From NCBI GenBank assembly GCA_964490975.1, contig CAZBEQ010000015.1, positions 1,995-65,994 on the forward strand: DNA of 64,000 nt, given 5' to 3'. Position numbers and translations under genes: made by a program. This DNA comes from an uncultured Oscillospiraceae bacterium (GTDB lineage Bacteria; Bacillota; Clostridia; Acetivibrionales; DTU013). The stretch's first letter is position 1. Each line of letters opens with the position of its first letter. Under the pieces are notes generated by a model. That model saw only the letters and a list, made by a program, of their open reading frames with translations, was not told the origin of the DNA and searched no databases. Of the stretch, positions 7,594-51,573 are shown piece after piece.

Positions 7594-7610
7594 AGAGTTA
7601 CAGAATAGTG

Positions 7611-7646
7611 AACCACCGGCCTGGGCATGGCCGGTGGTTTTTCTTT
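7611..7646 (+). terminator. rho-independent terminator of the PBP gene
   Basis: AACCACCGGCC / GGCCGGTGGTT stem followed by TTTCTTT. Confidence 0.8.
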
Positions 7647-7659
7647 AGCGGGCATAACC

Positions 7660-7935
7660 CAGGTTCAGATTTGACCGTACTACTCGTTTTTGCAATTATA
7701 GGACAAAATTGCAGGGCATTGCGAAGAAAAAGCCTTACTTTTAATCGGTTTATATATACAACAGGTCATTTTTTAGTGAAATTCCGTTCTAAAGTTACAA
7801 TAATGAGTAGTGCGCTATTATATTTATTCAGGCAAAGAGGTACCACATATACTTGGATTTTAGTTGGATTTGACAGATCACAACCATGTCGTATCAAAAG
7901 TACTTTTTTTACTTATCGCTGAAAGCTCTACGGAA
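7660..7935 (+). repeat. copy A of a diverged ~280-nt intergenic repeat family
   Basis: Aligns by eye along its length with 51223-51505. This includes an identical 23-mer, ACTACTCGTTTTTGCAATTATAG (7679-7701 = 51250-51272), and the blocks GTTCTAAAGTT, CAGGCAAAGA and ATCGCTGAAAGC. Its 3' half also aligns with the minus strand of 29972-30096. Confidence 0.75.
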
Positions 7936-7968
7936 CCCCTCGTCTAACGCAAGGTTCCACATACAACT

Positions 7969-8003
7969 AAACGCAGGGTTGATTTGTCCCTGCGTTCTTG
8001 TTT
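7969..8003. terminator. hairpin between repeat copy A and the 3' end of proB
   Basis: AAACGCAGGG / CCCTGCGTT stem with CTTGTTT after it on the plus strand. The T-run is weak on both strands. Confidence 0.45.
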
Positions 8004-8888: not shown

Positions 8889-9074
8889 GGGGGACATACT
8901 TCCGTCCAACAGCCACACTTCAAGTTGCTTTAGCGTCAAAAGGGGACATTCTTCGTCCCTCGTAGCCATGCTCCATTTGCTTTAGCGTCAAAAGGGGACA
9001 TTCTTCGGCCCCCGTAGCCGCGCTCCCTGTAGAAGTGTGTCCCCTTACCTATTATGTGTCCCCTTACCATTATA
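8889..9074. repeat. tandem array of an AAGGGGACA / TGTCCCCTT palindromic element
   Basis: On the plus strand there are three ~52-nt units starting GGGGACAT(A/T)CTTC(C)G (8889, 8942, 8994). Two of them end in TTGCTTTAGCGTCAAAA. They are followed by two 19-nt units, GTGTCCCCTTACC(T/A)TTAT (9037, 9056). Confidence 0.85.
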
Positions 9075-17415: not shown

Positions 17416-19524
17416 ATGACTATGCGAAACCCAATAAACAATAGCGGATATGATGCATGGCTCAGCTTCAGCACTGCTGATAGCACGGCTGTCAGCAAAT
17501 TGTCAACATTTTTTGGCAGCATATGCCTGGAATCTAATGACCCATTGGTATCGATGGCCGGAAAGGAATTGAAATCAGCTTTTAAAACAATTTTCGTCAA
17601 AAGCCCTTTAACCGTTAAAAGTACAAAGGCTCAAGGGACAGTTGTCCTGTGCACTATTCCCGAAAGAACATCACCACCTGTTGTCGCTGATGTCGATAAA
17701 GCCGCCAGTATTTCCTTTATAACTGATAAAGAGTATGACAATATCGGTGGCGAGGGTTTTATTATAAAGCGCTGCAAGCATAGTAATAGCAGTTTTACAA
17801 TAATTGCCGCTAAATCCGGTGCCGGTGTACTTTATGGAGCTTATACACTTCTGCGGCTTATCCTATGTGGAGGCTTCAGCGAAAATATCAGCATTATTGA
17901 GAATCCATCACTGTCACTGCGTATGATCAATCAATGGGACAATATGGATGGCAGCATAGAAAGAGGTTATGCGGGGCTCTCTATTTTCTATAAGAATGGC
18001 AGTATTCTTACCGACAGCAAAAGGATCCGTGATTATGCACGGCTATTGGCATCCATCGGTCTCAACGCAATCGTACTGAACAACGTCAATGTGCACGACA
18101 TGGAAACAAGGCTGCTTTCAAAAGAAGAACTCCCAAAGGTTGCAAAGCTGGCTGAAATTTTTAGGTGCTATGGAATAAAGATTTTTCTGAGTATCAACTA
18201 CTCCAGCCCCATTGAACTCGGGGGGCTGGATACAGCAGACCCTTTGGATGCTGGAGTCCGGTCATGGTGGAGCTCCAAAGCCGCCGAGATCTACAGCTAT
18301 ATCCCAGATTTTGGTGGCTTTCTTGTCAAGGCGGATTCAGAGTTCCGTCCGGGACCCTTCACTTATGGAAGAAATCATGCGGAAGGTGCAAACGTACTGG
18401 CAGAGGCTCTTAAGCCCTATGGCGGTATTGTTGTCTGGCGGTGCTTCGTTTATAACTGCAGACAAGATTGGCGTGATACAATAACAGACAGGGCAAGCTC
18501 TGCCTATGACAACTTTATGCCTCTTGACGGTAAATTCGCGGATAATGTGCTGCTTCAGATCAAGAACGGGCCGATGGATTTCCAGGTTAGAGAACCTATA
18601 TCACCGCTTCTTGGAGGGCTTAGAAAATCTAATATGGTGCTTGAGGTGCAGATCACGCAGGAATACACGGGACAGCAGCGTCATCTTTGCTACCTTGCAC
18701 CAGTGTGGAAGGACACACTGGATTTTGATACCTTCAATAACGGTAAGGATAGTACAGTAGCAAATATACTTGTTAATGCTCCAAAAAACGGTATGTTGTC
18801 AGGCATTGCAGCGGTCTCTAACATCGGTGATGATATGAACTGGACAGGACATGATCTGGCGCAGGCCAACCTTTATTGCTTTGGAAGACTTGCATGGGAT
18901 CCTGGCCTGTCCTCCGAAGTAATCGCAAAGGAGTGGACAACTCAGACCTTTGGAAACGATCCGGTCGTTATGGATACTATTACCGGTATGCTTATGGAAT
19001 CATATAATATTTATGAAAGCTACACTTCACCGCTTGGTATCGGCTGGATGGTCAATCCCAATCATCATTATGGTCCAAGTGTGGATGGCTATGAGTACTC
19101 AGCCTGGGGAACATATCACAGAGCCGACCATGAGGGTATAGGTGTAGATAGATCCGTAGCTTTGGGAACCGGCTATGCCGGCAGATATTCCCCCCCGAAC
19201 TCGACTATGTATGAAAACATTGAAACCTGCCCCGAGGAACTACTTTTGTTTTTCCACCATGTTCCATACAAGTATAGGCTAAAATCAGGTACTACACTGA
19301 TACAGTATATATATGATACTCACTTTGAAGGAGCTGAAAAGGCCGCAGAGCTGGTCAACAAATGGAAGAGCCTCAATGGCAGGATCAACAGCCAATGCAG
19401 CGACCGCGTCCTTAAAAGGCTTGAGGAGCAGGCCGCTCACTCATGTGAATGGCGCGACGTTATCAACTCATACTTTTACAGAAAGAGTGGTATCCCGGAC
19501 GAAAAGTCCAGAAAAATTTATTGA
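17416..19524 (+). CDS. aguA: alpha-glucuronidase, glycoside hydrolase family 67
   Basis: GH67-typical N-terminus SGYDAWL, a ~700-aa length, and the blocks [16 protein letters not shown] and [11 protein letters not shown]. Confidence 0.85.
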
Positions 19525-19525
19525 T

Positions 19526-19603
19526 CAATCAAAGGGGACGGGGGTTTTTGATTATCAATTAACTTGTTAATTGATAATCAAAAACCCCCGTCCCCTTTGA
19601 TTG
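19526..19603. repeat. perfect 37-bp-stem palindrome
   Basis: CAATCAAAGGGGACGGGGGTTTTTGATTATCAATTAA (19526-19562), loop CTTG, exact reverse complement at 19567-19603. It starts 1 nt after the aguA stop and ends 5 nt before the proA -35 box. Confidence 0.95.
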
Positions 19604-19666: not shown

Positions 19667-20962
19667 ATGAGCGTTACCGAAGCATGCCATGGAGTCAAGT
19701 CAGCATCCATAAAGCTGGCGGTGTCCACTACTGCCGAAAAAAACAACGCGCTTCTTAGTATTGCAGATGCGCTTCTCAACCATAAAGAAGATATTTTCGC
19801 TGCAAATCGTCAGGATTTGAAAAGAAGCGAAGAAGAAAATGTACCCTTTCCCCTGCTTAAGAGACTGAAGTTCGATGAATCCAAGCTGAATGACGTCATA
19901 GCAGGTATCCACAGTCTTGTCGGTCTTGAGGATCCGGTAGGCAGAACATTGCTTTCTACGGAGCTGGATGATGGACTTGAGCTCTACAGGGTCACGTGTC
20001 CTATTGGCGCTATCGGTATAATTTTCGAGTCAAGGCCGGATGCACTCGTTCAGATATCTACCCTCTGCCTTAAAAGCGGGAATGGAGTGCTTCTGAAGGG
20101 CGGTTCCGAAGCAATTGAAACAAACAGAGTACTGGCAAGGCTTATCATTTCCGCAACTGAAGCCGCCGGCATTCCGAAGGGCTGGTGCAGCCTTCTGGAA
20201 ACACGTTCAGATATAAATGAGCTGCTAAAGCAGGACAAATATGTTGACCTTATTATCCCAAGAGGCTCTAATGAATTTGTCAGATATATAATGAATAACA
20301 CTAACATACCTGTGATGGGCCACGCAGACGGCATTTGCCATTGCTATATAGATAACACGGCAGATATGGACATGGCTGTACGGGTGGCAATAGATTCAAA
20401 GACGCAGTATGTAGCTGTCTGCAATGCTATGGAAACGCTTCTTGTACACGAAGCTGCAGCAAAGGAATTCCTGCCCGGGCTCAAGAAAGCTGCTGATGAA
20501 AAAAATGTAGAGCTGTTCGGCTGCAGTAAAACTACAGCAATCATATCCGTATCACCGGCTTCAGAGGATGACTGGAGAACAGAGTATCTTGATTACAAGC
20601 TATCGGTTAAAATCGTCGGAAGCCTTGACGAAGCGATAGACCATATCAATACCTATGGCTCCGGTCATACTGACTCAATTGTCACTGCAGACAAGGATGC
20701 TGCCGCGCGTTTCATGTCTCTTGTGGATTCAGGAAATGTTATGTGGAACTGTTCCACCAGATTCAGCGACGGGTTCAAATATGGCCTGGGTGCCGAAGTT
20801 GGCATTAGCACAGGCAAGCTCCATGCACGCGGTCCCGTCGGACTCGAGGGACTTGTGATATATAAATACAAGCTGATAGGTAACGGTCATATTGTTTCAG
20901 ACTATGCCGAAAAAAGGAGCAGCTTCACTCACAGAAAGCTTGACAGGGACTGCCCTCTTTAG
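19667..20962 (+). CDS. proA: gamma-glutamyl phosphate reductase
   Basis: ALDH-superfamily ProA blocks: GIIFESRPDA, LLKGGSEA, IPRGSNEFV, CNAMETLLVH, GSGHTDSIVT, STRFSDG. Confidence 0.92.
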   Translation: MSVTEACHGVKSASIKLAVSTTAEKNNALLSIADALLNHKEDIFAANRQDLKRSEEENVPFPLLKRLKFDESKLNDVIAGIHSLVGLEDPVGRTLLSTELDDGLELYRVTCPIGAIGIIFESRPDALVQISTLCLKSGNGVLLKGGSEAIETNRVLARLIISATEAAGIPKGWCSLLETRSDINELLKQDKYVDLIIPRGSNEFVRYIMNNTNIPVMGHADGICHCYIDNTADMDMAVRVAIDSKTQYVAVCNAMETLLVHEAAAKEFLPGLKKAADEKNVELFGCSKTTAIISVSPASEDDWRTEYLDYKLSVKIVGSLDEAIDHINTYGSGHTDSIVTADKDAAARFMSLVDSGNVMWNCSTRFSDGFKYGLGAEVGISTGKLHARGPVGLEGLVIYKYKLIGNGHIVSDYAEKRSSFTHRKLDRDCPL

Positions 20963-29902: not shown

Positions 29903-29940
29903 GTCGGGAGATGCTACCAAACATCCCCCGATTTTTTATT
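29903..29940. terminator. bidirectional hairpin terminator after mecA
   Basis: TCGGGAGATG / CATCCCCCGA stem followed by TTTTTTATT on the plus strand. On the minus strand it follows repeat copy C and is followed by CTTGTGTT. Confidence 0.7.
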
Positions 29941-29971
29941 GTTGTGTTTAGAAAGTCCCGCGTTAAGCGCT

Positions 29972-30165
29972 GAGATCTGTAAAGCTTTCAGCGGTAAGTA
30001 ATTAAACTCCTTTTGCCATAACCTGGTTGCGGCCTGCCGACTGCAACTAAGATCCAAATATATGTAGTACCTCCTATGCCTGAATTATTATAGCGGTCGA
30101 GTCCTCTCTGCGAATCTCAAATTGCTATCGTTTTTTTACAAATACAAATTCTCCAAACGATCGGC
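29972..30165 (-). repeat. copy C (minus orientation, 3' part best conserved) of the ~280-nt intergenic repeat family
   Basis: The minus strand reads TTCAGGCATAGGAGGTACTACATATATTTGGATCTTAGTTG...GGCAGGCCGCAACCAGGTTATGGCAAAAGGAG...CTTACCGCTGAAAGCTTTACAG. This matches copy A (TTCAGGCAAAGAGGTACCACATATACTTGGATTTTAGTTG...CTTATCGCTGAAAGCTCTACGG) and copy B (AGCAGGCCACAACCAGGTTATATTAAAAGGAC...). Confidence 0.65.
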
Positions 30166-30575
30166 TAATAATAGATGACGATAACCCGTTCACGGGTGGC
30201 AAGAAATAATTCCCTATTACGGGTGCTGGCAGCAGGCTTATCACACGTGAAACATTCTGTATATTATTATTCTCGTTTACTTTACCAGTCATCACAGAGG
30301 TGTTCTTCAAAGAAATACTAAGTGAAGATCTATAGATGTCTGTAAGGTTGAACCTGAGAAACAGAATTCCCGTAATATCCGGCTTCGCACGTAAAGATAT
30401 CACCATCTGCGCGTATTGTTTTATCCATCCCTGACTGATTTGTGACAGTGAGTACGCTAGCTGAAATTTTGTCAAAAGCTTCTGGATATGCTTTTAGTCT
30501 ACTCCATTTCATACAGAGGGCACCGCATCCCTGTTAATCCTCAAGCAGTGCGCCAGTCTCAGGGATTCCTGAGCT

Positions 30576-40008: not shown

Positions 40009-41157
40009 CTATACCCATTCTTCAGCCTTCAGCCAGTTGCCATCAGAGAGCATATATAGTTCTGCTGTTTCAGGCTTTGCTCCGTTCTCATATTCAGTAT
40101 CCAACAGGATGATGCACACGCTATTCCCCTCATCAGCCATACGGTCTGCCTGTGTGCACAAATCCTTGCTTAGATAAGCTGTTATGATAATTGTTTCAGA
40201 GTTTACTACATTCGGTGACATATCCTCAAGAAGGCTTTCAAAGTTCTTTATACTTTTCATCATAAGTCCCGCCAGTATTTTGAAAAGCTCCGTGATATGA
40301 TCCTTATCCGCAGCTTCACTTGTAATTATTGGCTGTTTCGCATCCTCGGAGGTACAGCCATTTGTGGCGAATACTACAGGTGTTCCCTCCCTCAGCGCTT
40401 TGTCGAAAAGCGTTGCAGCAACCTTTATGCCAAGCTCGGCGATACGTCTGTTTATTACATTTGTGAATTCATAGAGCTTTGATTGCATATTTAGTATGAC
40501 AGTTAGATTTTGCTGGGAAGTGAATTCATTTTTTCTTGCCATCAGCTTTCCGGTTCTTGCTGTAGCAGGCCAGTGGATCCGGTTCAGGGGATCGTTGAGC
40601 GTATGCTCCCGAATACCGGAAAACATAAATGGATCATCTATTATCCACCTGCTTACTACTTTATCGCTCTGAAGCAGATTTACAGGTACGAATAATTCAT
40701 CCAGATCTACTATTTCAGGGTAAACCATAAGTGTGATATTTACAGGCAATGCCTCTGAATTGTTACATAGATTAAGGAGATCGCCTCCGATCAGTGTAAC
40801 ATTTTCAGTATGAAAAACCCCTCTTTTGATACACTTCAGTTTCCATTTCCTTGTTGTCTTCTGATAGCTTTTCAATAGAAAGCTGCTCGTCACACGCCTG
40901 TCATCCTGGGCCAACACCGAACACATACCTGCAAAGTCCAGCCATCTGGAAGTATGTATATCTACCTTGAGCCAAGACACAGGCAACAATTTACCGTTAT
41001 AGACCGTCTCAACCAGATAGATCGTGTCACCCTCATGTGCTTCGGAGACACTGAATTTGCAGCTATAATCCAGCTTACTGAACGTATAGTTGCCAAATAT
41101 ATATGCCTGTAGCCATAGTACACCAACAAAGATCAGCAACAATGCGATGACATCCAT
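40009..41157 (-). CDS. DUF58 domain-containing protein
   Basis: N-terminal TM and the DUF58 hallmark FSGIREHTLNDPLNRIHWPATARTGKLMARKNEFTSQ. Confidence 0.8.
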   Translation of the reverse strand: MDVIALLLIFVGVLWLQAYIFGNYTFSKLDYSCKFSVSEAHEGDTIYLVETVYNGKLLPVSWLKVDIHTSRWLDFAGMCSVLAQDDRRVTSSFLLKSYQKTTRKWKLKCIKRGVFHTENVTLIGGDLLNLCNNSEALPVNITLMVYPEIVDLDELFVPVNLLQSDKVVSRWIIDDPFMFSGIREHTLNDPLNRIHWPATARTGKLMARKNEFTSQQNLTVILNMQSKLYEFTNVINRRIAELGIKVAATLFDKALREGTPVVFATNGCTSEDAKQPIITSEAADKDHITELFKILAGLMMKSIKNFESLLEDMSPNVVNSETIIITAYLSKDLCTQADRMADEGNSVCIILLDTEYENGAKPETAELYMLSDGNWLKAEEWV

Positions 41158-41166
41158 TTCAGCACC

Positions 41167-42144
41167 TCAAATCTCTTCAGTGGGTACACGGACTGTTCCT
41201 AAAATATCGCGGATAGTATTTTCAGCATTTTCCGAGCCTCCGGTAATCGCATGTCCTTTTATTATCAGACGATGAGCAAGTACGGGCACTGCCATTTCTT
41301 TGACGTCATCCGGAGTGATAAAATCACGTCCGTTCAATACTGCATTTACCTGGGCTGCCTTCATCAGCGCTATGCTGCCTCGCGGACTGACACCCAGAGA
41401 TATTCTATTGTCATGCCTTGTTGCTTCAATTATGTCTACGATATACTGCTGTGAAGCATCCGATGTCCTCACTGAAGTAACTGCATCCTGTGCATCAATA
41501 ACTTCTTCCTTTGAAGCTGCCGTCTTCAATGTCTCAAGAGGATCGGAGTCCCTAAAGCGTTTTAAAATTTCCATACCTTCATGAGGATCGGGATAGCCCA
41601 TCCTCAGGCGCATAAAAAATCTGTCAAGCTGTGCTTCAGGCAGCGGGAAAGTACCACGCGTCTCAACGGGATTCTGTGTGGCTATAACAAAGAAAGGCCT
41701 GTGAAGAAGCCTGGTTTCTCCATCCACAGTGACCTGCTTTTCCTCCATGCATTCCAAAAGGCTGGACTGAGTTCGCGGTGTTGCTCTGTTGATTTCATCA
41801 GCAAGAATTATATTAGTAAAAACCGGGCCTGACCTGAAGATGAATTCTCCGTTTTTCTGATCGAAGTAGTTGATCCCTGTTAAATCCGACGGCAATAGGT
41901 CTGGAGTGAACTGTATCCTTTTAAAGTCACATTTCAAAGACCTGGCCAGGCATTTTGCCAGCATCGTCTTGCCGACACCGGGAACATCCTCCAGCAGGAC
42001 ATGGCCTCCGCACAGAAGCGAAGTTAGTACCAGATCGATAGTTTCCTCCCTGCCGACCAAAACCCTGGATATATTATCCCTGATCAAACCGGCAAGCTTT
42101 TTTACATCAGACAGTTTCATAATATCCCCCTTGTTCAAATCCAT
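41167..42144 (-). CDS. MoxR family AAA+ ATPase
   Basis: GHVLLEDVPGVGKT (Walker A), ILADEINRA (Walker B), and the MoxR-typical PEAQLDRF. An alternative start is at 42120. Confidence 0.92.
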   Translation of the reverse strand: MDLNKGDIMKLSDVKKLAGLIRDNISRVLVGREETIDLVLTSLLCGGHVLLEDVPGVGKTMLAKCLARSLKCDFKRIQFTPDLLPSDLTGINYFDQKNGEFIFRSGPVFTNIILADEINRATPRTQSSLLECMEEKQVTVDGETRLLHRPFFVIATQNPVETRGTFPLPEAQLDRFFMRLRMGYPDPHEGMEILKRFRDSDPLETLKTAASKEEVIDAQDAVTSVRTSDASQQYIVDIIEATRHDNRISLGVSPRGSIALMKAAQVNAVLNGRDFITPDDVKEMAVPVLAHRLIIKGHAITGGSENAENTIRDILGTVRVPTEEI

Positions 42145-42151
42145 CGCCTCG

Positions 42152-42349
42152 TTATTGAACCTGATCGACTGTTTCAGCGCTCAATTGTCTTTCATTCCAG
42201 ATCCGGAGTTTTTCATTGTCCTCCTTGAACTGTGGGATACTCAACAATATGGATATTATAAGTATGACAGCAATAACAATGAGCTCCCTTATTATCGACG
42301 GACTCATATTTTTGATCCTGACACCTGCACGTTTGAATGCCAAAAACAT
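42152..42349 (-). CDS. small single-TM protein at the head of the MoxR operon
   Basis: MFLAFKRAGVRIKNMSPSIIRELIVIAVILIISILLSIPQF... The RBS AAAGGGG lies 7 nt upstream of the ATG at 42349. The stop is 8 nt before the MoxR start. Confidence 0.5.
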   Translation of the reverse strand: MFLAFKRAGVRIKNMSPSIIRELIVIAVILIISILLSIPQFKEDNEKLRIWNERQLSAETVDQVQ

Positions 42350-42450
42350 GAAAAAACCCCTTTTTACTAGCTTCATAGATTCATACTACCATCCTGTACA
42401 TACCAAAACAAGTAGAGAATTTTAATCTATAAAGTAGATAAAAAGAAGCT

Positions 42451-42531
42451 TGGGGTGCCAGGCACGAAAGATAGACACTTATTTGATATATATTTATCAA
42501 TAAGTGTCTATCTTTCGTGCCTGGCACCCCA
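42451..42531. repeat. long near-perfect palindrome (~33-36-bp stem) directly after the giant gene
   Basis: TGGGGTGCCAGGCACGAAAGATAGACACTTATT(T)GATA ... TATCAATAAGTGTCTATCTTTCGTGCCTGGCACCCCA. The only asymmetry is a single extra T. Confidence 0.95.
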
Positions 42532-42540
42532 ATCACCCAA

Positions 42541-45500
42541 TTAATGAGCGCCGATGACTCCGTCTACTCTTGTGCCGCCGCCCTGATAGGTCGTGACCCT
42601 TTCAGCGCCGGAATTGCCCACGATGTAGGTCGGCGTACCGCCGCCGTATGCGCCGTATGCTGCGGACCGATCCTCTGCTGAGAAGTAGGTGGCACAGCCG
42701 CCTGTGAGCGCAGCGGAGCTTGTCGAAAGCTGAGTCACCCATGTACCGTCAGACAGCTGTGTGAGCACCGGTTTCCCATTGTCGTAGCTGTTGAAAACGC
42801 TCTGCTGCGGTACCTCTTTACAACCAGTCAAAGTAAACCAGACATCGTAGATTTGTCCTGTCACACAGTTTATCAGCGTTGTATTAGCGTCAGTAGTTTC
42901 CTTGTCAACATCACCGTAGGATACAGAATTATCTGCCAGAATAGAATTGCAGAAGGTGACATTACTGCTTGTACCAGCAAGCGAACCTCTGTTATTTCCC
43001 GCCACAGTGACATTTACTGCGGTTGTACTGCCGTATACCGTATATATGCCGACTAAGTTGTTGGCTATTGTAGTATTATTCAGTATAACCTGGCCGGAAT
43101 CGTTATTTATACCTTTTGCTCCGGAGCCTGTGACCGAACAGTTTTCCATTGTGAGTATACCGCCGTTCGAACAGTATATCCCATCACCACCGTTATCTTT
43201 GATGGAGCAGTTCACCATTGTCATTGGAGCCTCGCAGAAAATGCCGCGGCCGCTGCCGGTTATCGTGCAGTTCCTAAGCTCAGCTACCGAGCCCCCCTGT
43301 GCCCTCAATGCATACTCAGAGGCATTGCACAAGGTCACATTATCAAGACTGATTTCCCCTGCGGTGTTGTTTATGCCCTCTTTGCCTCCAAAATCAACTG
43401 TCAGATAACTGATTGCACATGATGTGGTGGAGGAAAGTTCAAAGATCGTATTACTGGGATTGCTGTTCTGGAAATACAGTGTCCGCCCGCCACCGTCGAT
43501 ATTGACACTGGAAGGAAAAACAAGCACTTCTGTAACAATGATATCTCCATCATCCTGCGAAGCAAGTGCTGCCATCAGTTCTTCATATGTAGCAACCGAC
43601 GCTGATTCATCCCATCCCGCATATAGGGTTACATCCGAGTCATATACCCAATAACAGGTATCATCCGGATTTGGTGTGAGATAGGCAGAATTCGCGCCTG
43701 TGTAGTTAAAGCTCCCGTCGGCATTGATGAGCTTGGTGCCTCCCTGAACATACCAGCCGGTAAATGAAAAGCCTGTCCGGCTTGGATTTGTGATCGGCGG
43801 TAAAGCTGTCCCTTCATATGCAATTGTGACGGAAGGCGTGCCGGCAGTCGTGGCATCCTCAGCAGACAGTGTAATGGTATATGATTTTCTTTCAAACCGG
43901 GGTTCCACAAATATATCCCGTGGCGGCATTTTGGCCGGTATTGCCGGTTCCCATCCGGTAAAGGTAAAGCCTGCTTTCGTAGGAGCCTCGGGTGGTGTGA
44001 TGTCTGCTCCGGTCTGGAGCTGCTGTGGATTCGGTGCTCCGCTGCCGTCCGTATAAGTGAATGTATAAGAGTTAATGTCGTAATATAGATCCGCCGAGGC
44101 CGTACCGTCTGCCAAAACAATCAACTGAGGTATTTGTACACTAAGACGATAGCCTGAGTAGTATTGGCGCGGTACATATAGCGACAATTCTGCAGTGTAA
44201 TAATATGTTCTGGTGTCATAAAGAGTATACTCGCTGGAACCCGGAGCCGTTTGGAGATGGTGGCGCACCGTATACATCGCATCATCATTAAGCCGCCACT
44301 TCGCATAAAGAGTGTGCGGTTCGGAAATCCTTACTATACTGTCCGGCAGTACCTTTATTCCGTTTGCCCAACCATTCTCATCCTCGGAAAAATACCAGCC
44401 TGCAAACGTAAACCCTGTCATCACAGGTGTTTGCAATTCGCCATATTCAGACATATATGTAACGGTATCTACGTAACCATTCGGCAGGCCGCCTCCGTTG
44501 GTATCATATGTAATAGTGCAGCTATTGGGCCTCCAGACAGCAGTAGTTGAAAGCTCGTGTGCGGGCATGGTCATATTCTCCGATATCCCCTGCCACTCAC
44601 TGATATGCCAGTTATCTCTGAAAATAACCGGAGCGGAAATACATGCCCCGTATTTAATCATGGTCGTTACTAAGTAATTGGCTACTTCACCGGGATCGTC
44701 CCCGCTTTCATAATTATCAAACAGATCGCTTTCCGGTGTAAATCGTGCGTCAAAGGTCACCTCATAACTGTTGCGTGTATAGTAATAGTTCACTGTCCTG
44801 GTGCCATCCGGTGCTATGGTAACCGTTTGGAGAGGCGGTGCAGTAAAGCCCTCATATGATTTCACCGCAGGAGTGACGGTTGAATCTGTTGTTCCGGTAA
44901 ACAGCTGTCTGTCGGCAAGAGTATATTTTGAATCATTCAACAGGTCCTGCTTATGATGGCAAACCGTATAGCGGGTATTTGTCAACGGTTCCCATTTCGC
45001 ATAAAGGTTGAGGTAATATGCCGGCATGGTCGAAAAAGTATACTGCTGTGTAAATCCTTCGTCGGTATACCATCCTGCAAAGGTATATCCGGTCCTTGAA
45101 ACAGTTGGTTCTTGTATAATATCTCCGTAATAAAGGTGGAGATCCCTAACATAACTGCCACCGTTTTCATTGAAAAAGACCATGTAGCCGCCGTCATTGA
45201 CATCATCCCACTGCAGGTGATAGGTCTTGGAAATCGGCATGGATGAAAACGCCATTGGTCCGTGCCTCCAGGTAATCGTCATATCGCATTTGAGCATATG
45301 ATCATCCTTAGCAGTTGTCACAACGACCCGGTTCCCGTTTAGTGAAAAAGCATCATTTGAGAAGCTAAAATCGAAGTCGGATAACGGATAAGCCTTCTCG
45401 GTATATTCTCCCTCCCTCAGGTCAATATACTTCATGGTGATAAAGTCATCCGGAATAAGAAACTGCTTGTCACCATATTTCAGACGTATATCAGGCGTAT

Positions 45501-48500
45501 CCTTGTATACAAAGTCAACTACGGAGTATTGCGTACCTGCTGATAACAGAGGCCACTCATTCTCATAAAGTGTCCAGGTCGAGCCAATATTGCCGCTGAA
45601 CAGCTGTGCCACAAAATTAATTTCCAAATATACGCCAAGCTCAAAATATAGTGCGCCTGTGCTCATGTAAGAAGCAACACTGTTGACCTCCCGGTACTCA
45701 TAATAGAAGTAACCATAAAATTTTGCATATACTCCTGCCTCTGCAGTAAAACCTACGCTGTTGATGTCACAGCTGAACAGTCCTGCGGCCAGTTCAAGGC
45801 GGATCCCGGCACGCAAACCCAATTCGCCCATTATATAGAAGCGGAAGGTAAGCACCTCATCAGCAATATCCTGGGTATAGCTTCTGAAGTTTCTTGAGAA
45901 TATTCCCCCGTAAAAGGCATAGCATGTACCGCTGGAGTATTCAAAGCTGGTACCCAGTGCCACATTGATATATGCGCTGACAACGAAATGTCCGCTGAGC
46001 TTGATCTGTATTATACCAAAGAGTACCGGTATTCTCTGGTCGAACAATTTTTGTTCAAATAATTCTATCCAGTCGGAGCCTTGTTCAAGCATATCACAGT
46101 AAGTATCCAACAGTTCACTGACACCGGCTGCTATTTCGGCTGAATCGGTGCTTGTAAGCAGTGACTGTATTTCATCGGATATGTCAAGTGATAATCCGTC
46201 TTCCTGTGAATTTATGCTCGCTTCAAAGAACATACCCGTATAATTATAGACATTTGTGTAAGAGTAAAGGTTGTAATCCTTTATCCAGTATATAAAAAGC
46301 CAATGATCCCAGACAACACTGCCTGAGGCGTCGAGAGAAACGCTGATTTCCTGAACAAATGTGGCCGAACCACTTATGACAACTTCGTTATCACCGACTG
46401 CGACCGGCACGTCAAAGTTGACTGTGACCGCTGCACGCAAGCCATCTCTGCCTATTTTCTGTGTCTGTGAGCCAATCGACGTATCGACATCTATCCTGAT
46501 ATTATCCGTCGGGCCCAGTGTTGAAAGCGATCCTTCGGGAAGAGTTCCGAGAGCCGAAGTATAGTCTATCCTCTCTCCGGTAGTCTCTTCAAAGCCATCT
46601 GTTGCCATTGCTACAGCACTTAAATACACTGCTGCCTGTTCAGCAAAGCCGCTGTCTATAATGTGCTGCTCCAGGCTCGCCTCCAGCTGTGACACGTTTG
46701 CGCCCTCAAGCAGACTGTCACCGCTGACAGGAGTCTGAGCATAATAGCTCATCGCTGACTGCATTTCTTCCTGTGTAACAGAAGTGTAGCTTACAGTGAT
46801 TGAATTATCAGTACTGTTTGAAGTGATTCCGTTTATGACGGCATACCCGAGACAGTCGCCCAGACTCAGGTTTGCAAATTCGGGGTTTGTATAAAAGAAA
46901 ATGTAGTCACCAACATCGACAGTAGTGCTTGCATCCAGTCCAATGGAGGTAAAACCTGAAAAATCAAGCGCTTCGATATCCACAGTAAAGCTGGTACCTT
47001 CTGACGAGTAATTTCTCACCTGACTGGCAGAGCCCACATATATTGGCAAAGTGTCCGGCAGAGCAAGTACGTTTTCCGCAGCAGCCTGTGAATAGCTGAC
47101 TGTCGTACCGTTTACACCTGTAACCGAGACATAAGCTATATCTTCATTGATAAGAGCTTCAGAAGCGGCATCAGTGTCAGGAGGCGTATTGCCCGAATAT
47201 ATACATAACGTATCACCGGCGGTAAGTGTTTCATTTCCGCTGTATGTGAAGGTGCCTGTAATTGAGGTTATTTCCTCATCGCTTACAAGCGGAACATTCA
47301 GCGAATCAACTTCCTCGCCATTCTTAACTATGTTTGAAACTTTAACTGAGGGTATGTAAATGATCCCATCACTCAGCGGCAGGTCATCAGACTCTTCCTG
47401 CCTTATAGTAAAGGCGCAGGTCCGTATGTTTTGTTCCCTGTCGGAGTATGTCAGCTCATCATCGGTCAATATCAATGTATATGCAGCGCCTGCAGTGAAA
47501 CCTCCGTCTGCGGAGACGTTGAAGCTGCACTCTCCAGAGGATGCACCGCCGCTGTTGTCTCCCTGTCCTTCTGTGACCAGCAACACCTCCGGCGTACTGC
47601 CGTCCGCCCGCTCAATATCAATAGCGTTCTGCACTTCGCTCAGATTCATGGAAGCACTGGATATAATCGTAAAGCTGAGCGTCGTTGGCTGATCGGTCAG
47701 AGCAAACTGTTCGTCCTGCATACTGGTAACGCTCTCAAGCTCTGCATATTTAGCGTAAAGAGTTAGATTTGAGCTTACAACGGTCTCAGAGATAAAGCTT
47801 TCGGTAAACAATGGGTCCTTGTACCAGCCTAAAAAGACGAAACCAGTTCTTTGCGGTGTCGGAAGGTTTGAAATAGTGCCGCCGCTGGATACGATTTTTG
47901 CGTTTATAGTCAGTCCGCCATTGGTTTCAAAGCTGACGGTATAGTTCGATGCTGTACCGTTGGTGCCGTTGGTTCCATTATTGCCGCTATTGCCGCCTGT
48001 TCCAATGCCACCGCTATTGCCGTTGCTGTCTCCGGCGCCATTGTTTACGCCTCCGTCGGATAAAGAGACTGTTTGATGGACACGCATACTGACGGCAGCG
48101 CCTTCTGCTCTCTTTGCGCTGGATTTAGGATTAAAGCTGCCGTCCTCGTCCCCCTTCAGAATTCCTGCCCTCCAAAGGAGCATCACAGCTTCCCTTGCCC
48201 AATCGGAAACCTCGGATAGATCCTTCGGTTCCACCGTTGTTTCATCCAGGTCTCCAAGATCTATATTGCAGACAGTAAAGAAACGGACTGTAAAAACTGC
48301 CATCTGTTCTCTGTTAACAAGACCATTCGGGTCAAAATTTCCATTCCCAACACCCTGAGCAATTTGCATCCCAGCTGCCCAGGCAATGTAAGGAGCGTAA
48401 TACGCATCCGCAGTCACATCAGAAAATGTGTCACTGTAAGGATAATCGGAGGGCTTGATCCCGGCGATTCGCCCCAGAACAGTCACGTACATACCTCTTG

Positions 48501-48726
48501 TCATCGTGCCATCCGGCAAAAATGTATCTGTGCCGGTTCCGTTAAAAATGCCATTTTCAACGGCATACTTTACATACCCGTAATACCAGTCAGATTCGGA
48601 AATATCCTGAAACAGGCCGGATGGCGGGCTTGCAGCACCGCTTTGTGCTGCGGCGAATACATTGTACGGCATAACGGACAGAATCAGGCAAAGAATAAGT
48701 ATTATGCTGATAAGTCTACCTTTCAT
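42541..48726 (-). CDS. giant (2061 aa) S-layer-homology-anchored cell-surface protein with Listeria-Bacteroides repeats and a C-terminal parallel beta-helix
   Basis: The domain order is:
- signal peptide
- three SLH repeats (residues ~38-215)
- G/N-rich linker
- at least five GWY-type Listeria-Bacteroides repeats (for example RTGFVFLGWYKD, RTGYTFAGWYTD, MTGFTFAGWYFS)
- two YTV.HH MucBP/B-repeat-like modules
- C-terminal PbH1-like repeats (NCTITGSGRGIFC, NCSIKDNGGDGIYC, NCSVTGSGAKGINN). Confidence 0.9.
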   Translation of the reverse strand: MKGRLISIILILCLILSVMPYNVFAAAQSGAASPPSGLFQDISESDWYYGYVKYAVENGIFNGTGTDTFLPDGTMTRGMYVTVLGRIAGIKPSDYPYSDTFSDVTADAYYAPYIAWAAGMQIAQGVGNGNFDPNGLVNREQMAVFTVRFFTVCNIDLGDLDETTVEPKDLSEVSDWAREAVMLLWRAGILKGDEDGSFNPKSSAKRAEGAAVSMRVHQTVSLSDGGVNNGAGDSNGNSGGIGTGGNSGNNGTNGTNGTASNYTVSFETNGGLTINAKIVSSGGTISNLPTPQRTGFVFLGWYKDPLFTESFISETVVSSNLTLYAKYAELESVTSMQDEQFALTDQPTTLSFTIISSASMNLSEVQNAIDIERADGSTPEVLLVTEGQGDNSGGASSGECSFNVSADGGFTAGAAYTLILTDDELTYSDREQNIRTCAFTIRQEESDDLPLSDGIIYIPSVKVSNIVKNGEEVDSLNVPLVSDEEITSITGTFTYSGNETLTAGDTLCIYSGNTPPDTDAASEALINEDIAYVSVTGVNGTTVSYSQAAAENVLALPDTLPIYVGSASQVRNYSSEGTSFTVDIEALDFSGFTSIGLDASTTVDVGDYIFFYTNPEFANLSLGDCLGYAVINGITSNSTDNSITVSYTSVTQEEMQSAMSYYAQTPVSGDSLLEGANVSQLEASLEQHIIDSGFAEQAAVYLSAVAMATDGFEETTGERIDYTSALGTLPEGSLSTLGPTDNIRIDVDTSIGSQTQKIGRDGLRAAVTVNFDVPVAVGDNEVVISGSATFVQEISVSLDASGSVVWDHWLFIYWIKDYNLYSYTNVYNYTGMFFEASINSQEDGLSLDISDEIQSLLTSTDSAEIAAGVSELLDTYCDMLEQGSDWIELFEQKLFDQRIPVLFGIIQIKLSGHFVVSAYINVALGTSFEYSSGTCYAFYGGIFSRNFRSYTQDIADEVLTFRFYIMGELGLRAGIRLELAAGLFSCDINSVGFTAEAGVYAKFYGYFYYEYREVNSVASYMSTGALYFELGVYLEINFVAQLFSGNIGSTWTLYENEWPLLSAGTQYSVVDFVYKDTPDIRLKYGDKQFLIPDDFITMKYIDLREGEYTEKAYPLSDFDFSFSNDAFSLNGNRVVVTTAKDDHMLKCDMTITWRHGPMAFSSMPISKTYHLQWDDVNDGGYMVFFNENGGSYVRDLHLYYGDIIQEPTVSRTGYTFAGWYTDEGFTQQYTFSTMPAYYLNLYAKWEPLTNTRYTVCHHKQDLLNDSKYTLADRQLFTGTTDSTVTPAVKSYEGFTAPPLQTVTIAPDGTRTVNYYYTRNSYEVTFDARFTPESDLFDNYESGDDPGEVANYLVTTMIKYGACISAPVIFRDNWHISEWQGISENMTMPAHELSTTAVWRPNSCTITYDTNGGGLPNGYVDTVTYMSEYGELQTPVMTGFTFAGWYFSEDENGWANGIKVLPDSIVRISEPHTLYAKWRLNDDAMYTVRHHLQTAPGSSEYTLYDTRTYYYTAELSLYVPRQYYSGYRLSVQIPQLIVLADGTASADLYYDINSYTFTYTDGSGAPNPQQLQTGADITPPEAPTKAGFTFTGWEPAIPAKMPPRDIFVEPRFERKSYTITLSAEDATTAGTPSVTIAYEGTALPPITNPSRTGFSFTGWYVQGGTKLINADGSFNYTGANSAYLTPNPDDTCYWVYDSDVTLYAGWDESASVATYEELMAALASQDDGDIIVTEVLVFPSSVNIDGGGRTLYFQNSNPSNTIFELSSTTSCAISYLTVDFGGKEGINNTAGEISLDNVTLCNASEYALRAQGGSVAELRNCTITGSGRGIFCEAPMTMVNCSIKDNGGDGIYCSNGGILTMENCSVTGSGAKGINNDSGQVILNNTTIANNLVGIYTVYGSTTAVNVTVAGNNRGSLAGTSSNVTFCNSILADNSVSYGDVDKETTDANTTLINCVTGQIYDVWFTLTGCKEVPQQSVFNSYDNGKPVLTQLSDGTWVTQLSTSSAALTGGCATYFSAEDRSAAYGAYGGGTPTYIVGNSGAERVTTYQGGGTRVDGVIGAH

Positions 48727-48830
48727 TATCTCGCCTCTTTCCCTCGATTACATTCTTTCTATTACAGCCTGGAAGAGCTATTCTTAGGTGGATATTTCCA
48801 TTGCCTGCATAAATTTTCCATGATACAATT

Positions 48831-48861
48831 ATTGTACACCTCATGTTAACACGAGAGTCAA
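48831..48861 (-). promoter_or_regulatory. MerR-type promoter (19-bp spacer with dyad operator) driving the giant surface-protein gene
   Basis: Minus strand: TTGACT (48861-48856), spacer CTCGTGTTAACATGAGGTG (19 nt), TACAAT (48836-48831). The spacer holds the dyad CTCGTGTTAACATGAG, with 2 mismatches from a perfect palindrome. Confidence 0.7.
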
Positions 48862-48927
48862 GTACTGATTACAGATTCTTCGCGTTTTTTTGACAAATAT
48901 CAACCTTGAAAAGAGAGGTATCACTTC

Positions 48928-49737
48928 ATGCCAAAACCGGATGGACTGTTTTCCATAGGCGAGATTGCCGTAAGCAGCGGTCTGAGCATTAATGCCATAA
49001 GGTTCTACGAAACAAAGGCACTCATTAAACCTTCATCCACCTGTCCAAAATCCGGTTACCGCTATTACAGCCGGGAAAATCTTCTCCGTCTGCGGACAAT
49101 CATAGTGCTGAAGAATGCGGGGCTGTCCCTGCAGGAGATCGGAGATTATTTGGATGGAGAGAGATATACTGAGAAAAAGATTGAGGAGCTTACACTGCAG
49201 CGTGATTTTTTAAACCGCGCAATTGAGGACTTGATTATTCGAACGGTAAAGACCGGAGACTTGACAGTACACGAGATCGAGCTTCCGGAACGCTTCTGCC
49301 TCTGCCGTACAATACAGGCAAAAGACGCTGACCATGCACTTAGCGCCATTGGTGCATTTTATGAAGAGCTGATCCGCAAAGGGATCACGATCAGCTATAC
49401 CTGGCCGGAATTCTGCGAATACCCTGATTATGGGCTTTTAAATGGTAAATTTCCCATCAATGATTTCACCGTCACCGCATGTCTGCCGGTCGAAAATGAA
49501 GACGCACAGCCCGAAGCTGTGCGCTATCCTCCAGGAAGTGCAGTATCAGTTAATTACAGAGGTGATTATTTTGGGCTGTGGAAGGCATATGAGGCTCTGC
49601 ATCAATACATGGCAACCCACGGGTACGTTCCGTCCGGATATCCGCAGGAAATCTATATAGAAATTGGCTCTGACGGAGCGGTTCAGCCTGACAGTTTAGA
49701 TAACATTACCTGCGTGATTGTTCCAGTAAGAAAGTAA
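48928..49737 (+). CDS. MerR family transcriptional regulator with a GyrI-like effector-binding domain (BmrR-like)
   Basis: FSIGEIAVSSGLSINAIRFYETKALIKP...GYRYYSRENLLRLRTIIVLKNAGLSLQEI (MerR HTH), a coiled coil, and a GyrI-like C-terminus (VSVNYRGDYFGLWKAYEALHQYMATHGY). Confidence 0.88.
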   Translation: MPKPDGLFSIGEIAVSSGLSINAIRFYETKALIKPSSTCPKSGYRYYSRENLLRLRTIIVLKNAGLSLQEIGDYLDGERYTEKKIEELTLQRDFLNRAIEDLIIRTVKTGDLTVHEIELPERFCLCRTIQAKDADHALSAIGAFYEELIRKGITISYTWPEFCEYPDYGLLNGKFPINDFTVTACLPVENEDAQPEAVRYPPGSAVSVNYRGDYFGLWKAYEALHQYMATHGYVPSGYPQEIYIEIGSDGAVQPDSLDNITCVIVPVRK

Positions 49738-49757
49738 CGTATCGCTTGAGGCAGTAT

Positions 49758-49798
49758 AAAAAATCCCCTGAAAACTTATCGATTCCAGAGGATTTTTA
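49758..49798. terminator. bidirectional terminator (MerR regulator gene / flavodiiron gene)
   Basis: AAAAATCCCCTG ... CAGAGGATTTTT stem (one mismatch) flanked by A- and T-runs. Confidence 0.65.
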
Positions 49799-49820
49799 TA
49801 CTTCAAAAGTTGTTAGGCCA

Positions 49821-49856
49821 ACACATAGATACTTATTGATAAGTGCCTATGTGTCT
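49821..49856. repeat. degenerate short copy of the 42451-42531 palindrome
   Basis: ACACATAGATACTTATTGATAAGTGCCTATGTGT. The core ATAGA(T/C)ACTTATT(T)GATA...AAGTG(C/T)CTAT is shared with 42471-42513. Confidence 0.6.
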
Positions 49857-49869
49857 TATCAGACACCCA

Positions 49870-51063
49870 TTATGCTTTCATAGCTGCTGCAAAGCTCTCT
49901 CCGAACTCAGTGCATCTCTTAAGAGCACTTTCATCAGGCCGGTATTTTATGCCTAATGGTTCCAGCGGAATAGTCAATCCCGATTTTTCGAGCGATGCAC
50001 TGATCACCTTAGGCGATTCTCCACTCCAGCCATAGCTGCCGAAACCTGCACCGAGTTTTCCCTTGAATTTGTGTCCCTTGATTTCTTCCAGCAAGCCGGC
50101 TGTTGGGCGCAGAACAGTATTATTGACGGTACAGCTTCCAATGATTACGCCTTTTGCTTTAAATAATTCAGTCAGCAGGTCGCTCTGATCAGTTACCGCT
50201 ACATTGAACAGCTTGTACGCGGCTCCCTTCTTTCCAAGGCCTTCGGCGATTGCCTCTGCTATAGTCCTTGTGGCTTCGTACATAGTGTCATATATGATTA
50301 CGGCATAACCCTCATTATATTCCTGAGACCATTGATAATATTTTTCTATGATCTGCATCGGATCCTTTCGCCAGATTACACCATGGCTTGGAGCGATCAT
50401 ATCTATGTTAAGGTTCAAAGCCTTGATCTGCTCGATTTTTTTTGTTATCAGAGGGCTAAAGGGCGTCAGGATATTAGCATAATACTTGATAGCTTCCTGA
50501 TAAAGCTCACAATTATCCAACTCGTCATTATAGAATGACAAACCTGCATAGTGCTGCCCGAAAGCATCATTGGACAGTACTGTACCGGCTCCTTTAACAT
50601 AGGTGAGCATGCTGTCCGGCCAATGTATCATTTGCATCTCAACAAAAATAAGATCGTACTTACCAATATTAATTGAGTCACCGGTTTTTACGATTTGAAT
50701 ATTTAAATCATCACAGTGGAAATAGCTCTTTATAATATCTGCTCCATTTCTGGTACAATATATAGGTATATCCTTTGAGGGAAGTCTTTCGAGCAAATAA
50801 CCGAGACTGCCGCCATGATCCGGCTCACAGTGATTTATAATAATCATATCAATATTGCCAAGTCCAACATCCTTGTCCAGATTCCTGACGAAATCTTCCT
50901 TGTATGGATCCCATACAGTATCTACAAGAACTGTTTTCTGATCCTTTATTATGTATGAGTTATAGCTTGAGCCTCTGTGTGTAGACAGTTCATGTCCATG
51001 AAAGTGCCGCAGGCCCCAATCCTTAATACCTACCCAATATATACTGTCTTTTATTTCTACCAT
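49870..51063 (-). CDS. flavodiiron protein (FprA-type oxygen/NO reductase: metallo-beta-lactamase-like plus flavodoxin domains)
   Basis: Di-iron motif INHCEPDHGG, and a flavodoxin-like C-terminus (AVIIYDTMYEATRTIAEAI...GVIIGSCTVNN). Confidence 0.85.
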   Translation of the reverse strand: MVEIKDSIYWVGIKDWGLRHFHGHELSTHRGSSYNSYIIKDQKTVLVDTVWDPYKEDFVRNLDKDVGLGNIDMIIINHCEPDHGGSLGYLLERLPSKDIPIYCTRNGADIIKSYFHCDDLNIQIVKTGDSINIGKYDLIFVEMQMIHWPDSMLTYVKGAGTVLSNDAFGQHYAGLSFYNDELDNCELYQEAIKYYANILTPFSPLITKKIEQIKALNLNIDMIAPSHGVIWRKDPMQIIEKYYQWSQEYNEGYAVIIYDTMYEATRTIAEAIAEGLGKKGAAYKLFNVAVTDQSDLLTELFKAKGVIIGSCTVNNTVLRPTAGLLEEIKGHKFKGKLGAGFGSYGWSGESPKVISASLEKSGLTIPLEPLGIKYRPDESALKRCTEFGESFAAAMKA

Positions 51064-51222
51064 AACACCGACTCCTTTTGATTATCATTAAATTAGCAAC
51101 GAATCTATTATTACCCAAAATTATATCATATAAAACGTGAATTATCTTTTGCCACATACAAGCAAGTTATTGTCATTCTATAGTTGAGTGACTGTTTGAA
51201 GAATTTGGAAATGAAGAAATGA

Positions 51223-51505
51223 CAGGTTCAGATTCGGATTTGATACAAATTGTGATCGGACTACTCGTTTTTGCAATTATAGAACGTAATTGAGAGGCAT
51301 TATGAAGAATAAGCCATATTTTTAATATAAAAATGACCATTTCTTGGTGGAATTATGTTCTAAAGTTGAAAAAACGGGTAGTGCACTATCAAAATAACCA
51401 GGCAAAGAAGTTTCCACATGTATTTGTATATTAATTACAGTTAGCAGGCCACAACCAGGTTATATTAAAAGGACTTTCTACTCATCGCTGAAAGCCATAC
51501 GGAAG
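51223..51505 (+). repeat. copy B of the diverged ~280-nt intergenic repeat family
   Basis: See copy A. It contains the identical 23-mer at 51250-51272 and the conserved 3' block CTCATCGCTGAAAGCCATACGGAAG. Confidence 0.75.
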
Positions 51506-51530
51506 CTTATGTCTATCACAGTGCTTTTTA

Positions 51531-51573
51531 AACAACAAAAAAGGTGCAGTTTGCATAGCAAACCGCACCTTTT
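51531..51573 (-). terminator. rho-independent terminator of tuf (hairpin usable on both strands)
   Basis: Minus strand: AAAAGGTGCGGTTTGC TATG CAAACTGCACCTTTTTT. Confidence 0.85.

Follow-up and report, generated by a model that had tools for sequence, protein, structure and literature searches.

Insertion sequences (IS) of the IS200/IS605 family are mobilized in single-stranded form by TnpA, a Y1 HUH transposase that recognizes subterminal hairpins, and insert 3' of a short target without duplicating it, and their gene-less derivatives, the palindrome-associated transposable elements (PATEs), are moved in trans (PMC10055086, PMC5027513). The left end of IS200 itself contains a hairpin at nt 12-34 that is a bidirectional terminator, and a stem-loop at nt 69-138 in which the Shine-Dalgarno sequence is occluded; the RNA known as art200 or STnc490 is antisense to this region of left end and 5' untranslated region (5'UTR) (PMC4513863). 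Furthermore, terminators are strongly enriched directly upstream of IS200/IS605 elements (PMC13548323). The present analysis concerns a family of three intergenic repeats, here called copies A, B and C, in a 64,000-nt stretch of DNA (the window) from an uncultured Oscillospiraceae bacterium. These copies are very probably non-autonomous, transposase-less derivatives of an IS of the IS200 group (IS200/IS605 family), similar to PATEs or miniature inverted-repeat transposable elements (MITEs). The observations behind this are the homology of copy A to IS200 at both ends, the lack of the transposase gene tnpA, the empty sites in relatives, the presence of multiple copies, and the precise presence or absence of a nested palindromic unit.

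IS200-type left ends in the three copies

An Rfam scan, which had been proposed when the repeats were first described from the sequence alone (the sequence-only reading), returned nothing for the whole window at gathering score, while in E-value mode STnc490 (RF01405, the left end of Salmonella IS200) was matched in all three copies. The model aligned over its full length, on the strand opposite to the orientation first assigned, with 28.5 bits (E 0.001) for copy A, 22.4 bits (E 0.026) for copy C and 16.8 bits for copy B. All three scores (17-29 bits) fall well short of the 56 bits required for gathering, and the copies do not qualify as members of that Rfam family.

A scan with the shared left-end motif against one genome per species returned 17 loci. 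In ten of them, all in metagenome-assembled genomes (MAGs) of Clostridia, the motif is found approximately 95 nt upstream of tnpA and in the same sense, the other seven being unrelated contexts. The products of these tnpA genes are 60-68% identical to Salmonella IS200 TnpA. In the layout common to the MAG elements, a terminator hairpin is succeeded by a T-tract with TTG at its end and, after 6-7 nt, by the hairpin AAAACCCC.AGAT.GTCT.GGGGTT, then by C.GTA.AGCTTTCAGCGATGAGTAGACA, a stem-loop hiding GGGG(A) and the ATG of tnpA. This layout is the published anatomy of IS200 (PMC4513863).

A covariance model (R1) was built from eight MAG left ends located upstream of real tnpA genes, with the window sequences excluded, and the 64-kb window was searched with filters off. 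The best match was copy A at 7958-7841 (minus strand; 42.9 bits, E 2.3e-6), followed by copy C at 29952-30067 (plus strand; 32.2 bits, E 2.6e-4) and copy B at 51528-51405 (minus strand; 30.7 bits, E 4.9e-4). The fourth match had an E value of 2.7, indicating that nothing significant exists in the 64 kb beyond these three. The subterminal hairpin, the 5'UTR sequence and the stem-loop of an IS200 left end are all found in A, B and C, where they form a discrete module with an identical inner boundary. From R1 and STnc490, the module of IS200-type left end and tnpA 5'UTR-like sequence is assigned to 7813-7963 (minus strand) in copy A, where the layout is also that of the MAG elements, to 51384-51532 (minus strand) in copy B, and to 29945-30096 (plus strand) in copy C, in which it stands without the palindromic unit. 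In copy A the terminal hairpin (7956-7934) is followed by the conserved block GTAGAGCTTTCAGCGATAAGTA, then by another stem-loop, with no tnpA after them. Judging from these sequence matches, what had been called the 3' half of the repeat is an IS200 left end plus the tnpA 5'UTR, read in reverse complement.

The similarity among the copies that first drew attention to them was borne out by blastn. Copies A (7672-7935) and B (51253-51504) are 73.2% identical over 265 nt (E 2e-39), in line with the two-thirds to three-quarters estimated by eye, and the conserved blocks that had been pointed out are visible in this alignment. The 3' half of copy A does match the minus strand near 29972-30096, with A 7819-7950 and C 30092-29960 being 75.9% identical over 133 nt (E 2e-21), and B and C share 76.6% identity over 107 nt (E 4e-17). 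The identical 23-mer ACTACTCGTTTTTGCAATTATAG occurs twice, at 7679 and 51260, with no third site at up to 3 mismatches and 0.00 occurrences expected by chance. The true extent is larger than first described, given that A covers approximately 7602-7963 and that B and C have an additional common tail of about 100 nt, and the meaningful orientation for A and B is the opposite strand. The view that the 104-codon open reading frame (ORF) at 7608-7922 is non-coding also holds: it has no Pfam match and no counterpart of at least 80 aa in B, and A and B are separated by indels of 10, 18 and 2 nt. Frame-breaking indels rule out a small ORF conserved in the palindromic unit or the tail, which had been considered, and no coding capacity conserved between the copies was found.

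Copy A carries both ends of an IS200 element

On the right, the MAG elements that bear tnpA end in a small hairpin, AAAGGAAAAA, and a hairpin of the form CC.CC.GC/GC.GG.GG. A second covariance model (R2), built solely from the right ends of five tnpA-bearing MAG IS200 elements, gave a single significant match in the window, at 7660-7602 (minus strand; 28.3 bits, E 1.2e-4), the next best having an E value of about 1. This match adjoins the left boundary originally given to copy A, shares the strand of the left end and stands in the correct order relative to it. Copy A is the only one of the three with a recognizable IS200-type right end downstream of its left end on the same strand. The right end (7602-7660, minus strand) comprises the small hairpin GGGttatGCCC, AAAGAAAAA, and the hairpin CCACCGGCC/GGCCGGTGG. 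It is preceded, in the element sense, by a short linker (7661-7677, minus strand; ..GGTCAAATCTGAACCTG) that was delimited by the alignments and is common to B and diverged in C.

Only 152 nt separate the left-end module of A from its right end (7661-7812, i.e., the palindromic unit plus the linker), and a tblastn search of the window with IS200 TnpA detected nothing that resembles a tnpA coding sequence (best E 1.1). On this basis, the copies are derivatives and not autonomous members of the IS200 group. The R1 left end and the R2 right end in the correct order, with no tnpA, lead to the conclusion that copy A is, as far as can be judged from its ends, a complete gene-less mini-IS200 of approximately 362 bp, at about 7602-7963 on the minus strand.

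Empty sites in relatives and insertion behind terminators

The gene context described in the sequence-only reading was correct for all three copies. Copy A lies between a class A PBP gene (PBP1, plus strand) and proB (minus strand), copy B between a flavodiiron-type gene (minus) and tuf (minus), and copy C between mecA (plus) and a VanW-like gene (minus).

The site of copy A was compared with seven loci from relatives (L020-L026), in which ProB is 87-89% identical. Synteny is kept in these loci (an AraC-like gene, proB, and PBP1 convergent on proB), and the spacer between proB and PBP1 measures 60-75 nt. Its sole feature is a bidirectional terminator, aaaaCCGCAGGGA..TCCCTGCGGtttt (CCGCAGGGA..TCCCTGCGG), which is the homologue of the hairpin at 7969-7996. 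The PBP1 stop codon and the terminator stem are 17 nt apart in L023 versus 378 nt in the window, and the excess of approximately 361 nt equals the predicted 362-bp element. At the site of copy B, the spacer between tuf and the flavodiiron gene measures 174 nt in one relative (L028, flavodiiron protein 83% identical) versus 522 nt in the window, with the similarity resuming at the promoter-like TGGGTAATAATAG; a homologous terminator follows tuf both in this relative and in L027. R1 matched nothing in 80 kb of the relatives' loci. The syntenic conservation expected of a non-coding RNA (ncRNA) gene is not seen, since the repeats are absent from the relatives' proB/PBP1 and tuf/flavodiiron spacers. 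On this comparison of sequences, the copies are insertions and not conserved genes.

The hairpin that had been noted after each copy is present in every case (7969-7996, 51539-51573 and 29904-29931), yet it belongs to the terminator of the neighboring gene and already exists in relatives without the element. The hairpin at 7969-7996 (minus strand) is the proB terminator, the landing site of A outside the element, with homologous hairpins in L020-L026 that are bidirectional. The landing site of B is the tuf terminator (51539-51573, minus strand), found in the terminator scan and with homologues in L027 and L028, and that of C is the mecA terminator (29904-29931, plus strand), also found in the scan and whose minus-strand hairpin is the identical inverted repeat. 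Because the terminators are already there at the empty sites, the hairpins after the copies are not the element's own. All three window copies and all ten MAG elements lie 6-20 nt past a terminator hairpin and its T-tract ending in TTG, and the window copies are co-oriented with the upstream genes proB, tuf and mecA. The insertions thus have the IS200-type character of landing behind a terminator with neither terminal inverted repeats nor target duplication, although the cleavage positions are only approximate. Other left ends in the source metagenome run are flanked by ..TTTTTT(C)TTGTAT.., the same landing motif as in the window copies.

The hairpin at 7610-7640, within the right end of A, scores on the plus strand as an intrinsic terminator in the terminator scan and is placed 17 nt past the PBP1 stop codon. 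Its interpretation as merely the terminator of PBP1 was revised in light of the R2 match and of the agreement in size between the element and the empty site. From its sequence and position, the right-end hairpin of A now appears to act as the PBP1 terminator.

Two further observations were made in the loci used for comparison. In a Clostridia MAG (L014, approximately 324-1011), two IS200-type elements are found in tandem, with the left end of the second placed directly after the right-end hairpin of the first and its T-tract ..TTATTG, showing that an IS200 right end can itself be a landing site. The flavodiiron gene directly adjoins MoxR/DUF58 genes in three relatives (L027, L028 and L029), in two of which it is inverted with respect to tuf, whereas in the window the MoxR/DUF58 genes and the flavodiiron gene are separated by a 2061-aa ORF plus a gene of the MerR type. 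These differences in neighborhood indicate that the region 40009-51063 was rearranged more than once.

Copy number in the source metagenome

The source of this genome is a bioreactor metagenome run, the contigs of which were mapped to the window at 80% identity or more, with the depth summed over contigs. Single-copy flanks reach 39-43x, the core of the left end (7910-7937) approximately 495x, the remainder of the left-end module approximately 160-270x, and the tail approximately 200x. These high totals are composed of contig pieces at about 36-45x each, most of them less than 95% identical to copy A, which suggests roughly 4-15 copies per module in the source genome. The family is therefore multi-copy, gene-less and variably present at orthologous sites, as is typical of PATE- or MITE-like elements. 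A 7.2-kb contig with a depth of 40.5x, which is that of this genome, contains an IS200-type tnpA fragment that begins approximately 110 nt from the end of the contig. A second metagenome holds a 258-nt contig with full identity to A, which was considered as a sign of recent spread; other identical patches over 20 kb show that it comes from the same strain at very low coverage.

A palindromic unit nested in copies A and B

Copies A and B contain an inverted repeat, detected by blastn between 7679-7713 and 7777-7814 in A, and between 51257-51291 and 51348-51382 in B. It delimits a palindromic unit of 135 nt in copy A (7678-7812), defined by the inverted repeat, the fold into a long hairpin, the depth and the gap in C, and of 125 nt in copy B (51259-51383), defined by the inverted repeat and the fold; neither is assigned to a strand. 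The arms in A are approximately 7679-7705 and 7785-7811. The 23-mer, at 51260-51282 in B, is the left arm of this unit, and the block GTTCTAAAGTT..GAGTAGTG is its right arm. The local hairpin TGCAATT/AATTGCA that had been described just after the 23-mer is present, but forms part of this larger palindrome. When the unit is deleted in silico from A (7678-7812) and from B (51259-51383), both align with C across the junction between ..ATAGCG and GTC.., which means that copy C lacks the unit precisely.

In the source-run contigs the arms reach approximately 620x (about 14-15 times the single-copy depth) and the center approximately 240x (about 6 times), with flanks at 40x. At positions 7705, 7797 and 7801, pairing that copy A has lost is restored by the majority bases. 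Loose contig ends show the palindromic unit beside other sequences where the IS200 module is absent, and a CG dinucleotide is found at the edges of several, though not all, copies of the unit. Its behavior resembles that of a small palindromic MITE. In metagenomes, two matches were obtained with a degenerate form of the 23-mer, both attributable to chance and covering one arm only, and the 23-mer had no match among viral contigs. Copy A had no match in the plasmid collection by distant blastn, and a concatenated six-frame translation, with which other copies could have been recognized through spurious ORF calls, had none in the protein collection.

The tails of copies B and C

Beyond the repeat as first described, B (51207-51138) is homologous to C (30145-30213) at an equal offset in both copies, with a local alignment score of 31 compared with 17.8 +/- 2.3 in shuffled sequences. 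The linker plus tail of B is assigned to 51138-51258 (minus strand) from this alignment and has no R2 match. The tail of C is assigned to 30097-30250 (plus strand) from the depth profile, the loose ends and the homology to the B tail, and ends in the hairpin AACCCGttcaCGGGTGG. The C tail is repeated approximately 4-5 times in the genome (stretch 30143-30235), and the other copies match on to about 30250. The tails were considered as IS200 right ends, given some resemblance (AACC..GGTGG..ATAATT), yet they were matched by no model. It is possible that the hairpin AACCCGttcaCGGGTGG is a degenerate right end, the likeness in sequence being a loose one. A 116-aa ORF (30125-30475, minus strand, TTG start) that overlaps the C tail has no Pfam match and an implausible sequence, and is probably not a gene. 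Consequently, the approximately 480 nt between the left end of C and the VanW-like gene would be non-coding, and the repeat explains part of them.

Proposed mechanism and alternative explanations

In the proposed scheme, copy A consists of a left end with its terminal hairpin, a 5'UTR-like stem-loop, the 135-nt palindrome at the position of tnpA, the linker and the right-end hairpins. Copy B has the same left end and nested unit with a different and probably degenerate tail, and copy C a left end plus a B-type tail, with no nested unit. By analogy with the family, the elements would have been moved in trans by a Y1 HUH TnpA, through excision and insertion of a single strand, with the transposase recognizing the subterminal hairpins and inserting the element just 3' of the ..TTG that closes the T-tract of an intrinsic terminator. 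The conserved islands may reflect the needs of an active IS200, namely the terminator-forming hairpin bound by TnpA, the GTA.AGCTTTCAGCG block that follows it and the stem-loop of the 5'UTR. The copies themselves, which are 73-76% alike and have degenerate ends in B and C, would now be inactive, decaying relics. The islands of strict conservation had earlier been regarded as functional. This can be retained in the sense that they read as parts of IS200 ends used by the transposase and its regulatory RNAs, while the preference for a functional RNA or a protein-bound element over a MITE is abandoned.

Several observations do not fit easily with an IS200 derivation or limit its reach. The tails of B and C have no match to R2, and B and C may not be whole elements. 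No IS family could be assigned to the palindromic unit with the collections used. Its left arm (7679-7704) has zero variants among approximately 15 copies while the right arm varies, which exceeds the expectation for simple decay. As RNA, the unit folds with -38.4 and -52.5 kcal/mol on the plus strand versus -26.6 and -32.5 kcal/mol on the minus strand, a weak hint of selection on a transcript, the better folding of the plus strand being due to three or four G-U pairs. The copy numbers are sums of metagenome contig depths and do not come from an assembled genome, and the tnpA of the 7.2-kb contig is a plausible autonomous partner that is linked to this genome by coincidence of depth only.

One alternative is that the repeats are a dedicated family of structured ncRNA genes of about 300 nt, transcribed at A and B from the plus strand, from near the 23-mer to the downstream hairpin. 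Such a family is very improbable. The greater stability of the long hairpin on the plus strand, the hairpin downstream of every copy and a promoter-like TTGACC-17-AATTAT with an upstream TG, overlapping the 23-mer in A, would all suit it. However, the scan of B returned no such site, its -35 element not being conserved, and a transcript started from a promoter inside the left arm would not include that arm and could therefore not fold into the long hairpin. The hairpins found downstream are terminators of neighboring genes and occur at the empty sites as well, the orthologous sites in relatives are empty, and no Rfam family is reached at gathering score. RNAalifold, applied to only the three copies, gave weak consensus energies of -9.7 kcal/mol in the element sense and -9.1 kcal/mol in the antisense, with 1-2 compensatory pairs, which is uninformative as to covariation on either strand. 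Each half of the repeat is found repeated by itself, the 3' half being an IS200 end. The sequence-only reading had left the choice between a structured ncRNA and a decayed element, and had stated that the former would fail if the copies turned out to be fragments of a known IS. Given that this is what they are, the decayed element is the part that stands, with IS200 left ends in all three copies, a right end in A, empty sites and multiple copies, and the dedicated ncRNA falls. The family is very probably ordinary mobile-element debris and not a novel ncRNA family.

It is also very unlikely, though slightly less so, that the RNAs of IS200 were exapted, i.e., that the left ends without tnpA still express a 5'tnpA-like small RNA (sRNA) and/or an art200-like antisense RNA that would act in trans. 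This would be by analogy with Salmonella, whose IS200 5'UTR and antisense RNA act as functional RNAs (PMC4513863, PMC5435999). In all three copies, the module of left end and 5'UTR is kept as a discrete unit with the same inner boundary, and in the antisense direction a -10-like hexamer is found in a single alignment column (TATTAT in A, TATCAA in B and TATAAT in C). Nonetheless, the copies are just 73-76% identical, the Shine-Dalgarno and start region targeted by art200 is gone, R1 found no copies in the 80 kb of relatives' loci, and the past needs of transposition explain the conservation of the module equally well. In a broader form of this idea, which is still unlikely, the modules could have been put to use, with the left ends making 5'tnpA- or art200-like RNAs and the palindromic unit serving as a mobile promoter or a protein-binding cassette. 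The cassette would find its basis in the invariance of the 26-nt left arm in approximately 15 copies and in the promoter-like TTGACC-17-TGcAATTAT of copy A. Finally, the copies could be pieces of a larger unidentified mobile element or prophage, of which the IS200-like end would be one part, given that the tails of B and C continue past the repeat first noted and are repeated up to about 30250, and that other copies show differing sequence beside the palindromic unit. This is hardly credible, because copy A is bounded by IS200 ends on both sides and is of a size that explains the entire insertion as compared with the empty site, because no matches were found in the phage-contig and plasmid collections, and because no coding capacity is conserved between the copies.

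Significance and other features of the window

As derivatives of an IS200-group element, the copies explain three long intergenic regions that appeared empty, and one candidate ncRNA family can be struck off. Copy A would provide an example of an IS end used by the host, given that its right-end hairpin appears as the PBP1 terminator while the terminator that was shared ancestrally has been displaced by about 360 nt. The window copies and MAG elements together provide 13 independent cases of IS200-type landing just behind terminators in Clostridia. To our knowledge, gene-less derivatives of the IS200 group with a second repeat nested at the position of the deleted tnpA have been little described, and such nested derivatives could mislead searches aimed at sRNAs or omega-RNA-like guides.

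Three other features were observed in the window. The proB leader, which separates proB from the AraC-like gene (8920-9068, minus strand), contains tandem 52-nt direct repeats (8920-8971 and 8972-9023) that are 88% identical. Each repeat closes with the terminator-like hairpin GGGAC..GTCCCC and then TTTTGACG, and the repeats are preceded by two copies of GGTAAGGGGACAC that could pair as anti-terminators. From this arrangement the leader looks like a doubled attenuator; it had no family match in Rfam (best E 0.9). At 19526-19603, between the plus-strand genes 17416-19524 and 19667-20962, there is an inverted repeat of 38 nt without mismatches (CAATCAAAGGGGACGGGGGTTTTTGATTATCAATTAAC plus its complement) and with a loop of 2 nt; as a terminator it would be unusual in both length and perfection. 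Another perfect inverted repeat, of 34 nt and with a loop of 15 nt, is located at 42450-42532, just downstream of the 2061-aa ORF (42541-48726, minus strand).

Comparison with known systems

The window copies resemble the PATEs of Haloquadratum and of Geobacillus stearothermophilus (PMC10055086), in that they are short, gene-less and multi-copy and have end hairpins of the IS200/IS605 type. PATEs depend on TnpA supplied in trans (PMC10055086), which for the window copies is presumed by analogy, and both ends can be recognized in copy A only. PATEs with TnpB-type elements often encode an omega RNA, whereas none was detected in the window copies.

The nested unit invites comparison with other palindromic repeats. 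ERIC/IRU, Correia (NEMIS) and RUP elements are imperfect palindromes of about 100-150 bp that are intergenic and can form a long hairpin in a transcript. In general features the nested unit may be compared with them, having conserved arms of 23-28 nt, a variable center and a dozen or so copies. With respect to art200 (STnc490) and the 5'tnpA sRNA of Salmonella IS200, the window copies align over the whole model, i.e., the left-end hairpin plus the 5'UTR. They differ from art200 in lacking the region around the start codon with which art200 pairs and in belonging to a host of the class Clostridia, with no known dependence on Hfq.

The closest system is the IS200 group, represented here by Salmonella IS200, Yersinia IS1541 and elements from gut and rumen Clostridia MAGs (L001, L002, L006, L014 and L016). 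The window copies differ from these in having no tnpA and a replaced Shine-Dalgarno and start region, in the foreign palindromic unit of 125-135 nt that A and B have at the position of tnpA, and in the tail of B and C, which does not match an IS200 right end; their identity to the MAG left ends is restricted to a core of approximately 40 nt. They agree with the IS200 group in having a terminal hairpin approximately 10 nt inside the left end, a second stem-loop in the 5'UTR and no terminal inverted repeats, and in the block GTTC.GTA.AGCTTTCAGC, within which a 14-mer is identical in copy C and in the Rfam IS200 consensus. Copy A alone also shares the right end, with its small hairpin, A-run and hairpin CCACC.GC../..GC.GGTGG. 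Like the members of this group, the copies are found just behind an intrinsic terminator and are co-oriented with the upstream gene.

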